This document shows positions 44,655 through 51,681 of a stretch of 64,000 nucleotides of DNA, piece by piece. The position numbers and the translations under genes were made by a program. This stretch comes from an archaeon (GTDB lineage Archaea > Asgardarchaeota > Thorarchaeia > Thorarchaeales > Thorarchaeaceae), in NCBI GenBank assembly GCA_024276825.1, contig JAJRWI010000042.1, forward strand, positions 32,001-96,000, read 5' to 3'. The notes under the pieces are model-generated. The model had not been told where the DNA came from. It saw only the letters and a list, made by a program, of their open reading frames with translations, and did not search any database. Numbering within the stretch: the first letter of the stretch is position 1; each line of letters opens with the position of its first letter.

Positions 44655-45047
44655 TTATTCCTCTGTGCTCTCCTCTTCTGTATTTTCAGACTCTGATAGT
44701 TCAGCAGTTTCAGACTCTTCTTCATGCCTTTTCTCCTTCTTATGAGACGACTTTGGCTCCCCGGGTTCACTGCTTGGAATGAGCTTCATTACCAAAGGAT
44801 AGCAGAGTAATATTGAGATAATTGCCATTATCACTATTATCAGAACTGTGAGATCAGCGCCAAATAATGCAACCGGATTGATCCAGATGTCCGATTTTGG
44901 CACCCCAAAGACAACATGCTGCAGCCAACCGGGAATTGCAAAGGTAAGGGGGATGCATATGACAATCAGAAGAAAGACTGATGCAATGATCTCCGCAGTA
45001 TAGATTAGAATTCTTTTGAGCGTACTACTTACTGCCTCTTTTGCCAT
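44655..45047 (-). CDS. Small membrane protein with charged tail
   Basis: Two TM segments, acidic C terminus. Confidence 0.7.
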   Translation of the reverse strand: MAKEAVSSTLKRILIYTAEIIASVFLLIVICIPLTFAIPGWLQHVVFGVPKSDIWINPVALFGADLTVLIIVIMAIISILLCYPLVMKLIPSSEPGEPKSSHKKEKRHEEESETAELSESENTEEESTEE

Positions 45048-45123
45048 TGTCACTGTTGTGCACCAAGCAATTACGACTTTGAATTCCTTTTAATCATTGC
45101 TCAGAAGAAGATAAGGATAATAA

Positions 45124-45225
45124 GGAGAGGTTTGGGGCTCACCAAAAAAGAGTCGGGAGAGAGAGTGAGTGCGAAGGAAGGAGAGAGGATTAGGATTCTT
45201 TGCGGATTTGTGAGCCCCTTGCTCC
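45124..45225 (-). ncRNA. Candidate small RNA 1 (terminal stem, CU-rich loop)
   Basis: GGGGCTCAC/GTGAGCCCC stem plus GGAG/CTCC; GAAAAGATATATAT BRE/TATA-like box about 25 nt upstream on minus strand; strand is inferred. Confidence 0.5.
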
Positions 45226-45325
45226 ATGTTATAATATCCCTTCATATCATATATATCTTTTCATAGCATATATTATAGAATAGATTAATGTCTTGAGTAA
45301 ATTACCTTAAGAACTCGGGGATGAT

Positions 45326-45400
45326 GGCGTGCTTGGGGCATTGAAAGAAAGACACGGAAGGAGGAGAGAGATAATACGAGCATGAAGCCCCAAGCACCTT
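45326..45400 (-). ncRNA. Candidate small RNA 2 (terminal stem, CU-rich loop), paralogue-like to RNA 1
   Basis: GTGCTTGGGGC/GCCCCAAGCAC 11-bp stem; shared loop CTCTCTCC(TCC)TTCC; TTATAT box upstream on minus strand. Confidence 0.5.
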
Positions 45401-45481
45401 CAAATATCTATACGCATTAAAAGAATATAATCAAAGCTATGATGGACTAATTCAACAAAAGCGAATGAAATTTCTAGGCCC

Positions 45482-46207
45482 CTAATACAGAGAGAATGAA
45501 CTTGTGCCTGCAGACCTATTCTGCTCAAAAGACTTGACAAGGAACTGGATCATTTCAGGAAGTGAGCTAAAGACACGTTTTGCACCCTCAGCGTAGAGCA
45601 CATCTTCAGAGGTTTCACCAGTAATCACGCCCCAAAAATCAACACCTGCCTTGCGGGCTGCTGCCGCATCGATGAGAGCATCACCGACATATAATGTTCT
45701 TTCTGGAATACATCCAAGCCTTTCTATAATCTGCAAGAGACCCTCGGGGAAGGGCTTTGGGCTAATAGATTCATTTCTGGTCTGGATAACATCGAAATAT
45801 GGCCTCAGCGAGATCTTGTCCAGAATTATATCTACTGCTTCTCGACCATTGTTTGTGAGAATCGCAGTCTTGACTCCCAGCGTCCTCAGTGTTGCTAAGG
45901 CTTCAAGGGCCCCATCTATCAGTGAAACGTTTCTTGCAGAATTGGCCTCATGTCTTGAGAGGACCAGATCGACCTTCTTCTGCAAGTCATTCCACTCATC
46001 AATGTCCATTCCATTATTGAGAAAGTATTCCCTTGCCTTCAATGTCGAGCTTGAAATTCCATCAGCGGGCTCAAGGAGTTGAGGTGGGAGTCCATGCTCA
46101 ATGTATAGCTTTTTCACATCGGATCTCATTGCCTCCAGAGGAAGAGTGAGCACGATTATTGTTCCATCCAGATCAAAGACAATTGCGTCGTACATGGTCA
46201 AGCTCAC
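45482..46207 (-). CDS. HAD-IA hydrolase (phosphoglycolate phosphatase-like)
   Basis: FDLDGTI, ILTNN, KPFP, YVGD..ID..AA. Confidence 0.9.
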   Translation of the reverse strand: MSLTMYDAIVFDLDGTIIVLTLPLEAMRSDVKKLYIEHGLPPQLLEPADGISSSTLKAREYFLNNGMDIDEWNDLQKKVDLVLSRHEANSARNVSLIDGALEALATLRTLGVKTAILTNNGREAVDIILDKISLRPYFDVIQTRNESISPKPFPEGLLQIIERLGCIPERTLYVGDALIDAAAARKAGVDFWGVITGETSEDVLYAEGAKRVFSSLPEMIQFLVKSFEQNRSAGTSSFSLY

Positions 46208-49485: not shown

Positions 49486-51318
49486 CTACTTCTGCCTCAT
49501 TAGGACATATCCACCAACAAGAATCACAACTGCTGCTGCAACTGCACCTGCAACAATGGCCATGGTGAAGTCGCCACCAGTGGTTGGTGTGGTTGTGGTC
49601 TGCTGATAGGCGGATCTGTCAAGACCGTAGAAGTAGTTCGGGTTGTAGGTCAGCTCGACGAACTCACCAGCGACGTACGCAGACACATTAAATGGTCCAG
49701 AAGTGACCATCTCCTCAGCAGGTGGGTTGGGGTTCCAGGTATTCCAGCCATCAAGGCCAACTTCCTGGAAGACATGCTTTGGAATGATAGTCTTGTAGCC
49801 AATGGTGTGAAGGTGCCAGTATGACTCGGTGCTAAACTCAACCACTACTGTGTAGTCGGTTGGAGCATATGCAGCGGTCATCTCTGATAGGTCAACACCA
49901 TACGGGTTACCCGGTGCATCGCGGTAGTAGTTCAGCGTGAACGCGACATCCTCAGCAGTGATTGGCGTTCCATCTGTCCACGTCGCATTTTGTATCATAT
50001 TGAACGTGAACCGCGTATGGCCCTCAGGCACTGCGGGATTGTCAGCATGCGTTTCTGCCGTATATGACTCTGCAAGCCAGAATATGTCCTTGCCAAGGTG
50101 ATCGGTGCCAATAAGGCTATCATACATCTCACCCAGCACATTCATGGTGTATGCTGAAGAGCTAACCATGAAATTGAAGGTGTCAAGGTCCAATGGGTTG
50201 CTCCAAATGAAGGTACCACCGAATGGACCACCCTGATCAGCCTTGAGGTGAACCTTCTGATTTGTCCACCAGCCAGGGATACCGTCGCTTACGTCAGCAA
50301 CATGACCCTCGAACTTGTCGGTCCTGTAGGCAGATAGCAGAATGTTTTCATAACAGATGATCATTGGTGACTCGTAGACCCAGATCTTCTGCATCTCTAT
50401 AGCTGCCTCGTACACCTCATCGTAATCGGTGGAGTGAAGCAGCTGGTCTCTCCATGAGTCATATGTGGCATTTCTGAAGTTGGGGAAGTTCCAGTATGGC
50501 TCGTCTGCGTACTCTGACCAGAACTCATAAGCCAGCCAATCAACATCGAAAGAGTTGAAGGATGAACCAAGGAAGACTATGTCGTAGTCTCCGTGGAAGT
50601 AGAGTCTGTTCAGATACTCATAGAAGTCTGTAGGTTGGGATGTGGCATCAATACTAAGGTCCTGAAGTGCCTCGGCAACAATGGTACCGACCTCAATAGC
50701 AATGTTTGAGGATGATGCACACTCAACCAGTACATCAAAGTCTGAGCCATCAGGAGCCTCACGGAACCCGTCAGCATCGACATCAGCAAAGCCAGCTGCA
50801 TCTAGAAGCTGGTTACCTAGTTCGACGTTTGCCTCATAGTAGTGATATGGGAGTTGCTCCTCAACTGACCATGGATTCAATGCAGGAACTACTGAGTCCT
50901 GTGGTTGTGAGAGCCCATCCCACACATCATCTGAGATAGCCTCCTTGTCAAGAGCAAAAGCCAGTGCTCTGCGGAAGGCTGTGATGTTGAATGGATACTT
51001 AGCACAGTTGATTGTGATATAACCGTATCCGTTTCTCAGAGTGTGGGCAACTTCAATGTTTTCTGCCGCATCTAATGCTGGCAGAAAGCTTGGATCGATC
51101 ATGTCACCAATGACATCGATCTCACCGTTCTGAAGAGCGTTGACTTGCTGGTCGTCTTGCGTAATTACTTTGAACACAAGCTTGTCAATGTACGGACCTG
51201 ATTTGTAAAAGCCCGGTACAGTTGCCTGTGCTGCTCCAAACATGGGCGAAAGTGCCATGAATGTGAACGCAAAGACAAGTGACGCAGCAAGAACTCTCTT
51301 GGCACGACTGCTTGCCAT
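49486..51318 (-). CDS. ABC peptide/nickel solute-binding protein family 5, circularly permuted, C-terminally membrane-anchored
   Basis: WTDGTPITAEDVAFT, VTSGPF, FRRALAFALDK, LLDAAGF; signal peptide; TTTT linker plus TM. Confidence 0.92.
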   Translation of the reverse strand: MASSRAKRVLAASLVFAFTFMALSPMFGAAQATVPGFYKSGPYIDKLVFKVITQDDQQVNALQNGEIDVIGDMIDPSFLPALDAAENIEVAHTLRNGYGYITINCAKYPFNITAFRRALAFALDKEAISDDVWDGLSQPQDSVVPALNPWSVEEQLPYHYYEANVELGNQLLDAAGFADVDADGFREAPDGSDFDVLVECASSSNIAIEVGTIVAEALQDLSIDATSQPTDFYEYLNRLYFHGDYDIVFLGSSFNSFDVDWLAYEFWSEYADEPYWNFPNFRNATYDSWRDQLLHSTDYDEVYEAAIEMQKIWVYESPMIICYENILLSAYRTDKFEGHVADVSDGIPGWWTNQKVHLKADQGGPFGGTFIWSNPLDLDTFNFMVSSSAYTMNVLGEMYDSLIGTDHLGKDIFWLAESYTAETHADNPAVPEGHTRFTFNMIQNATWTDGTPITAEDVAFTLNYYRDAPGNPYGVDLSEMTAAYAPTDYTVVVEFSTESYWHLHTIGYKTIIPKHVFQEVGLDGWNTWNPNPPAEEMVTSGPFNVSAYVAGEFVELTYNPNYFYGLDRSAYQQTTTTPTTGGDFTMAIVAGAVAAAVVILVGGYVLMRQK

Positions 51319-51681
51319 TATTCTCTCTATCTCCTTTTCCGAGTCGAATCGGATGATATTCGTCTAACGATTGACAATAAAAGCCTTGTGTTGGACTTGG
51401 GAACACATTGAGCTTGAAAATGAACATGAAAAACACACTGGCCGCACTAGTCTTAGCGCACAAGAGTTTCAGAAGTTCACAGACATAATAAAAGAAAGAC
51501 AACTGGCAGTCCAATAATGATCAGTGCCAAGAGGACTACGACTGTAAAATCGCAATATCGTGGCCATTCATGAATAAAATGAACAGTCATCCAAGTTGTA
51601 TTCAACAATATGCATTTGAAATAACTAATAACAGCCACGCCCAAAAAATAGAAGTGAAGAAAGGCACTTCCGCCCTTCTGT

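Follow-up and report, generated by a model that had tools for sequence, protein, structure and literature searches.

The window analyzed here is a stretch of 64,000 nucleotides from a contig of an archaeon of the Thorarchaeaceae (JAJRWI010000042.1, assembly GCA_024276825.1). A fragment of an archaeal 16S rRNA gene is present in the assembly. Within it, a HAD-hydrolase gene and a gene for a small membrane protein, both on the minus strand, border a gap of 428 bp, from the HAD stop codon (45482) to the membrane-gene start codon (45053). The gap holds two minus-strand elements closed by stems: el2, 84 nt beyond the HAD stop codon, and el1, located between el2 and the membrane gene. The open reading frames of the gap encode at most 44–51 amino acids, and some overlap the elements; none has a Pfam match. 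The locus is organized as follows:

45482–46207, minus strand: HAD-hydrolase gene, the upstream border of the gap
45305–45401, minus strand: predicted el2 sRNA gene, with a start at ~45401 (GAAGG) and an end at ~45305, both placed by the promoter and the T-rich tail
45397–45387, minus strand: el2 5′ arm
45386–45340, minus strand: el2 open CU-rich loop
45339–45329, minus strand: el2 3′ arm
45103–45225, minus strand: predicted el1 sRNA gene, with a start at ~45225 (GGAGCAA) and a T/C-rich tail to ~45103
45218–45210, minus strand: el1 5′ arm
45209–45143, minus strand: el1 open CU-rich loop
45142–45134, minus strand: el1 3′ arm
44655–45053, minus strand: gene for the small membrane protein (132 aa), which anchors the RNA cluster in synteny

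Read on the plus strand, the arms of el1 are GGGGCTCAC (45134–45142) and GTGAGCCCC (45210–45218), enclosing a loop of 67 nt; those of el2 are GTGCTTGGGGC (45329–45339) and GCCCCAAGCAC (45387–45397), enclosing 47 nt. Both stems are perfect helices, of 9 bp in el1 and 11 bp in el2. On the minus strand, pyrimidines make up 73% of the el1 loop and 81% of the el2 loop, and folding of this strand predicts for both elements a closing helix and a large, essentially unpaired loop. The two elements have in common the motif CTCTCCTYCYTYCG, and each carries one of its only two occurrences in the 2.9-Mb genome. Their architecture is similarly rare: a perfect, GC-rich stem of 8 bp around a loop of 35–90 nt with at least 72% purine or pyrimidine is found at only four sites genome-wide, two of which are el1 and el2. 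Thus, the layout described in the original prediction, i.e., two stem-closed elements with differing stems, skewed loops, and a shared motif in an ORF-poor gap, is present in the sequence in all its parts.

For the 132-residue product of the bordering membrane gene, two transmembrane helices are predicted, and its tail is acidic; the protein yielded no Pfam match above the cut-off and no informative match in the protein atlas.

Searches for known RNA families returned nothing for the locus. Rfam 15 gave no match at gathering thresholds in the whole window or in six orthologous loci. At permissive thresholds it returned noise, the best match in 44900–45600 being CRISPR-DR32 (22 bits vs. a threshold of 48, E = 0.24), which falls outside the elements. 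The tRNA and tmRNA searches were also without a match. A MITE or dispersed repeat was rejected, as BLAST, motif, and covariance-model searches of the genome recover just the two copies; of the two identities that, according to the original prediction, would have spoken against it, an Rfam family and a MITE, neither applies. An archaeal C/D-box sRNA carries a C box (RUGAUGA) near its 5′ end and a D box (CUGA) near its 3′ end; neither UGAUGA nor CUGA occurs in el1 or el2 on the minus strand, and this class was rejected. Along the same lines, we rejected a Y RNA: no TROVE/Ro60 gene (PF05731) was detected in the 98.3%-complete genome by a search that was positive in Deinococcus as a control, and el1 and el2 have no match to the Rfam Y_RNA family. 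The stems in the window contain no bulge, and between genera the stem sequence varies; no conserved bulged helix of the Ro-binding kind was seen.

Conservation and covariation across the family

In both other genomes of the genus, el1 and el2 are syntenic, and their stems and loop cores form conserved islands within a diverged spacer. The comparative set comprises ~50 regions upstream of the membrane-protein gene, collected with the membrane protein, single-copy in 76 of the 86 family genomes, as an anchor. In nearly every genus, el2 lies ~260–370 nt and el1 ~65–150 nt before the start codon of the membrane gene, on the same strand as the gene. The HAD gene is missing from the locus in most genera, where the elements are still present, and both elements are retained in some genomes in which other genes intervene before the membrane gene.

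The two elements are conserved in different ways. In el2, the loop core UUCUCUCUCCUCCUUCC followed by GCGUUC is almost invariant across genera, whereas the membrane proteins of these genera are just 40–50% identical. In el1, at least 38 loci have an orthologue at the matching position, and the stem varies by genus: the helix has been fully replaced and its complementarity retained, with at least ten distinct arm sequences (e.g., GGGGCUCAC/GUGAGCCCC, AGGGGUCCA/UGGACCCCU, GGGUGACCC/GGGUCACCC, and ACAGGGAGUCCGA/UCGGACUCCCUGU in different genera). Up to four Watson–Crick pair types occur at single positions of the el1 helix in the model-based alignment of 35 el1 sequences. Loop lengths vary within the genus by numbers that are not multiples of three, and the overlapping short ORFs are not conserved; indels of this kind indicate that the elements are non-coding.

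We built a covariance model (R1) from 32 el2 sequences. R1 scores the el2 of the window at 53 bits (45320–45405, minus strand) and el2 orthologues in 35 loci at 38–77 bits. The same model scores el1 at 12–28 bits across loci, and the el1 of the window at 19.6 bits (45120–45231, minus strand; E = 0.0016). Thus, a model made from el2 also detects el1, which identifies the two as paralogues, as the original prediction had put forward. Among sampled genomes of the family, R1 detects el2 in 21 of 26, while a search of 125 genomes of other Asgard families gave just five marginal matches, all without the fold. These five, and weak R1 matches elsewhere in the genome of the window, have neither a closing stem nor a promoter and were set aside as low-complexity noise.

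Base pairing was assessed in two ways. In the model-based alignment, which is fitted to R1 and is therefore biased towards structure, 79.9% of cells are paired, compared to 65% in column shuffles and 31–55% with slid partners, and changes on both sides of the helix are found at 10 of 10 pairs. The alignment-free control used alongside asks for a perfect stem of at least 8 bp around a pyrimidine-rich loop. Of 48 loci, 33 carry such a stem at the site of el1, compared to 1.9% of dinucleotide shuffles; for the site of el2, the count is 18 of 48, compared to 2.4%. A MAFFT alignment of el2 was out of structural register, with 64.9% of cells paired and four pairs called by RNAalifold, and the model-based alignment was used in its place. 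The check in relatives that the original prediction had called for gave the same picture: the stems show covariation, and the loop motif has been retained.

An exact-pattern scan of metagenome contigs gave one match, a chance occurrence in a GC-rich coding region; in genome contigs, its matches were confined to the two congeners, apart from chance occurrences in bacteria. A degenerate version of the core motif, searched across the class, matched about as often as its reversed control, and its matches outside two genera are chance occurrences in coding DNA. In summary, this is an sRNA family that is absent from RNA catalogues and, among the genomes searched, confined to a single Thorarchaeota family.

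A divergent third paralogue, el3, is found in six genera, upstream of el2 and on the opposite strand. One example (L063:855–951, minus strand) scores 32 bits, and a further one lies at L051:1696–1844 (plus strand). The el3 stem is GAGGGGCG/CGCCCCUC, and its loop includes CAUCCUCUCCUCCUCAAGC. Regex and BLAST searches did not find el3 in the genome of the window, in whose genus the HAD gene takes that place.

Orthologues of el1 (e.g., L063:1353–1421 and L087:1952–2058) carry a conserved AACCGCUAC box directly 3′ of the 5′ arm. In most genera el1 also has a CUCUCUCAA box, and in some genera an internal hairpin; in the genus of the window, the el1 box has diverged to UCCGCAAAG. A complementarity of 7 nt between the CCGCUAC box of el1 and helix 45 of 16S rRNA, spotted by eye, was dropped, as a 7-mer match is expected by chance.

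Promoters, strand, and predicted transcript ends

Each element, as well as the membrane gene, is preceded on the minus strand by its own promoter element, and a T-run lies inside el1:

45424–45432, minus strand: TATA box of el2 (GATTATATT), located 29 nt before the 5′ end (GAAGG)
45248–45256, minus strand: TATA box of el1 (ATATATATG), ~37 nt upstream of the stem, the counterpart of a family-wide ACACTTATATGCTA box
45086–45093, minus strand: membrane-gene promoter (TTAAAAGG), between el1 and the start codon
45144–45149, minus strand: T6/U6 run immediately 5′ of the el1 3′ arm, inside the predicted RNA

The position of the el2 box is kept in the three genomes of the genus (g1) and across genera, where boxes of the GATTATAT or GCTTAAATATG type lie ~29 nt before GAAGG. 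Similarly, an alignment of the sequences upstream of el1 (38 loci) revealed a ACACTTATAT(G/A)CTA box ~34–37 nt before the helix in almost all loci, and a BRE/TATA-like box of the CCAGCAAGTTTTAAAGG type, ~45 nt before the membrane-gene start codon, is conserved in most loci. The original prediction had placed a TATA-like box on the minus strand about 25 nt upstream of each element; the boxes are there, but at distances of ~29 nt (el2) and ~37 nt (el1).

Archaeal RNA polymerase often terminates at T runs. In most relatives, T-rich runs follow each 3′ arm at a distance of 8–20 nt; in the window the tails are weakly T-rich: el2 is followed by TTCTT, and el1 by no T run longer than three. A U-rich tract beside the 3′ arm is a general feature of el1, with a T fraction of 0.50 compared to 0.27 in the rest of the loop, and in some genera it resembles AUUUUUGG; it does not occur in el2 or in some el1 orthologues. 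The internal T6 of the window might end el1 transcription before the 3′ arm, which would generate a short, open form of the RNA next to a long, closed one.

Counts of G–U against A–C mismatches, at 35 vs. 20 on the alignment and balanced when taken alignment-free, leave the strand undecided. The promoters, conserved on the minus strand, assign the elements to that strand, and on the plus strand the genus alignment shows no conserved TATA box at a suitable distance. The minus-strand orientation originally proposed is thus supported by the TATA boxes, and the T-tails of relatives fit it. The arrangement points to three separate transcription units, el2, el1, and the membrane gene, with transcripts and transcript ends predicted from these signals. 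Taken together with the comparative data, el1 and el2 are, very probably, two independently transcribed sRNA genes on the minus strand.

Predicted pairing with translation start regions

Initiation in this genome is Shine–Dalgarno-led, with the consensus GGAGGUGA(U). The 3′ end of 16S rRNA in a family member is GGAUCACCUCCU; the el loops have just CCUCCU in common with this tail and do not complement the GUGA portion of the canonical Shine–Dalgarno sequence. We compared predicted duplexes of the loops with 2306 start regions and with controls. For the el2 loop, the mean energy is −14.1 kcal/mol at start regions vs. −12.3 kcal/mol at coding controls, and duplexes of −18 kcal/mol or stronger number 542 at start regions, 296 at coding controls, and 406 with a shuffled loop, suggesting a modest preference of el2 for start regions. 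Predicted pairing of the el1 loop with start regions is no different from controls, and a genome-wide search for an extended target of either core (a match of at least 13.5/16) found none at a start site. The original idea of loops complementary to ribosome-binding sites is weakened by these results: just CCUCCU is common with the 16S tail, el2 is predicted to pair only modestly above controls, and el1 does not differ from them.

The 16S rRNA gene of a family member (L140) harbors an insertion of ~90 nt in the loop of helix 45 (L140:1425–1515, minus strand), just before CUGCGGAUGGAUCACCUCCU; this insertion might represent an intron or expansion segment.

The most specific candidate partner lies within the window:

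51319–51353, minus strand: candidate target leader, the ~35 nt 5′ of a family-5 solute-binding-protein (dppA-like) gene at 49486–51318

This leader consists of a mini-hairpin (CCGA/UCGG), the purine tract GGAGAUAGAGAGAA, and the AUG. Its start keeps a constant spacing to a conserved TATA box ~26 nt upstream. The leader is unique in the genome of the window and nearly invariant in ~28 orthologues spanning at least 12 genera, including those whose protein identity has fallen to 54%; it probably has a regulatory role of its own. The gene is syntenic with the RNA cluster, 4–8 kb upstream on the same strand. In the predicted pairing with the el2 core, UUCUCUCU faces AGAGAGAA, CUCC faces GGAG, and UU faces AA, so that the duplex would cover the Shine–Dalgarno sequence and extend to the start codon.

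With the whole el2 loop, the leader ranks third among the 2306 start regions; with the core alone, it ranks 39–44 among 13120 looser candidate sites, 38–43 others scoring better. Since el2 and the leader are both of low complexity and invariant, the genomes are not independent observations in the two comparisons that follow: in 13 of 17 genomes, cognate el2–leader duplexes reach z ≤ −1.5 against shuffled leaders, the lowest value being −4.4, and in 82% of genomes el2 complements the leader across 8 or more contiguous nt, compared to 28% of shuffled loops. One diverged member has a perfect 11-nt complement to GGAGAUAGAGA. El1 gives no signal on this leader. The dppA-like gene, cited as an example in the original prediction, has thus proven a useful lead, its leader being nearly invariant and among the best predicted partners of el2; that the two form a true pair is possible and, on balance, rather doubtful.

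Proposed mechanism, rival readings, and known systems

In the mechanism that we propose, each RNA would be ~95–125 nt long and start a few bases before a GC-rich helix made of its own 5′ and 3′ ends. This terminal helix would keep a pyrimidine-rich strand of 40–80 nt open, and a T-rich tail would end the RNA. The open CU strand could then serve as a trans-acting seed for purine-rich stretches around ribosome-binding sites, where pairing would block or otherwise tune translation initiation. For el2, the seed would be UUCUCUCUCCUCCUUCC, and its most concrete partner the GGAGAUAGAGAGAA leader of the nearby peptide-type solute-binding-protein gene. We regard pairing with ribosome-binding sites as a tentative choice that falls somewhat short of an even chance. 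The explanation as a whole, two sRNA genes acting in trans on translation-start regions, strikes us as evenly balanced.

That the elements are not RNA genes at all, but an inverted repeat arisen by chance, the remnant of a mobile element, the HAD gene's terminator, or a gene for a small protein, might be entertained from the short ORFs of 44–51 aa that overlap them and from the location of el2 just past the HAD stop codon (84 nt). On comparative grounds, this reading is already refuted: conservation across genera together with covariation rules out chance, single-copy status rules out a MITE, loops of 47–67 nt are too long for a terminator and the elements are kept in the genera, the majority, whose locus lacks the HAD gene, and indels disrupt the frames of ORFs that are themselves without a Pfam match. 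If the plus strand were the functional one, the loops would be purine-rich, with GGA/GGAGG sequences that could act as decoys for the anti-Shine–Dalgarno sequence or for a protein that binds GGA. Stem pairing is as good on one strand as on the other, the fold z-scores of el1 are slightly better on the plus strand, and the G–U and A–C counts do not discriminate. Nonetheless, this is extremely unlikely, given that all confident R1 matches (at least ~38 bits) fall on the strand of the membrane gene, the stronger matches on the opposite strand coincide with el3, and the conserved promoters and T-tails suit the minus strand. CsrA-type proteins, moreover, are bacterial. The Shine–Dalgarno decoys that the original prediction had offered for this strand lack a conserved promoter. 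Action in cis on the membrane-protein gene, by a long structured leader or by short upstream units that modulate its promoter through interference, would account for the order, orientation, and spacing (el1 65–150 nt before the start codon) kept in most of the ~50 loci, and for the weak terminators after el1 in the genome of the window. It is improbable in view of the conserved membrane-gene promoter downstream of el1, the T-runs after el1 in most genera, the persistence of the elements where other genes separate them from the membrane gene, and the poor pairing of the el loops with its start region. Furthermore, the whole neighborhood is syntenic, including the solute-binding-protein gene 4–8 kb away, and adjacency to the membrane gene need not, therefore, mean a functional link.

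An unlikely, albeit more substantial, alternative is that the RNAs are ligands or sponges of a protein and do not act as antisense RNAs. The terminal helix would then present the CU strand, and in el1 the U-tract, to an RNA-binding protein, for instance an Sm-like (LSm/SmAP) ring, with which they would either assemble into a small RNP or which they would titrate. This would fit a near-invariant 17-nt single-stranded core without a strong extended target in the genome, a U-rich tract that touches the el1 3′ arm, the three LSM-domain genes of the genome, and a closed-loop shape like that of Y RNAs, which are protein-bound. It sits less well with the failure to find a Ro60/TROVE gene in the 98.3%-complete genome and with the missing U-tract in el2 and some el1 orthologues; moreover, LSm binding and antisense action are compatible and not exclusive. 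A stronger version, which we hold to be very improbable, is that el1 and el2 are the RNA part of an Asgard-specific small RNP, in which the helix and U-tract would serve to load an Sm-like ring, with the invariant CU strand as the working surface. If true, such an Asgard RNP would be a prokaryotic counterpart of the layout of stem, Sm site, and single-stranded guide seen in eukaryotic small nuclear and Y-type RNAs.

Asgard archaea are the closest prokaryotic relatives of eukaryotes, and, to our knowledge, almost nothing is known of their regulatory RNAs; a literature search found no paper on small RNAs of Thorarchaeota. The locus provides sRNA genes that occur family-wide in single copy, with promoters that are clear, stems that covary, and an invariant seed, as well as one concrete candidate partner for trans pairing. 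Post-transcriptional control thereby becomes testable in an uncultured Asgard lineage, and the family could enter RNA catalogues, improving annotation.

Y RNAs bear a resemblance to el1 and el2 in their length (~100 nt), paired 5′ and 3′ ends, large pyrimidine-rich internal loop, and U-rich 3′ tail. The likeness to Y RNAs noted in the original prediction extends to this architecture only: the search for a Ro60/TROVE gene and for a match to the Rfam Y_RNA model was negative, and no conserved bulged Ro-binding helix was seen. In bacteria, GcvB uses a compositionally biased single-stranded seed to act on numerous mRNAs at their start regions, with mRNAs for periplasmic solute-binding proteins (dppA/oppA) as notable cases, and the C-rich seeds of RoxS/RsaE pair with G-rich Shine–Dalgarno sequences. 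These RNAs are bacterial, non-homologous to el1 and el2, and of another architecture, and the link to a solute-binding protein is, in our case, a predicted one.

The Cuckoo RNAs of Alphaproteobacteria (RSs0680/CcsR, alpha-r14, SmelC397) consist of 2–4 adjacent short hairpins with CCUCCUCCC in each loop, are bound by Hfq, and, in Rhodobacter, are co-transcribed with the upstream gene (PMC4615179). Like el1 and el2, they form clusters of paralogues beside a small uncharacterized gene and combine variable stems with a constant, unpaired, anti-Shine–Dalgarno-like pyrimidine motif (PMC4615179). In contrast, el1 and el2 are archaeal, have their own promoters, and are built from one end-to-end helix around one long loop (40–80 nt) with the conserved motif CUCUCCUCCUUCC and not CCUCCUCCC; there is no sequence or model match between the two, and membership in the Cuckoo family was rejected. 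Among archaea, the intergenic sRNA154 (through its loop 2) and sRNA41 of Methanosarcina mazei mask ribosome-binding sites and repress translation, and resemble our proposal for el1 and el2 in being archaeal, intergenic, and reliant on unpaired loops that act on the ribosome-binding site (PMC5867862). They belong to unrelated sequence families with other folds, and their targets were tested experimentally, whereas those of el1 and el2 are predicted. The nearest analogues, Cuckoo/CcsR and sRNA154/sRNA41, would thus be RNAs that work alike and not relatives, and the long strand held open by an end-to-end helix sets el1 and el2 apart from either.
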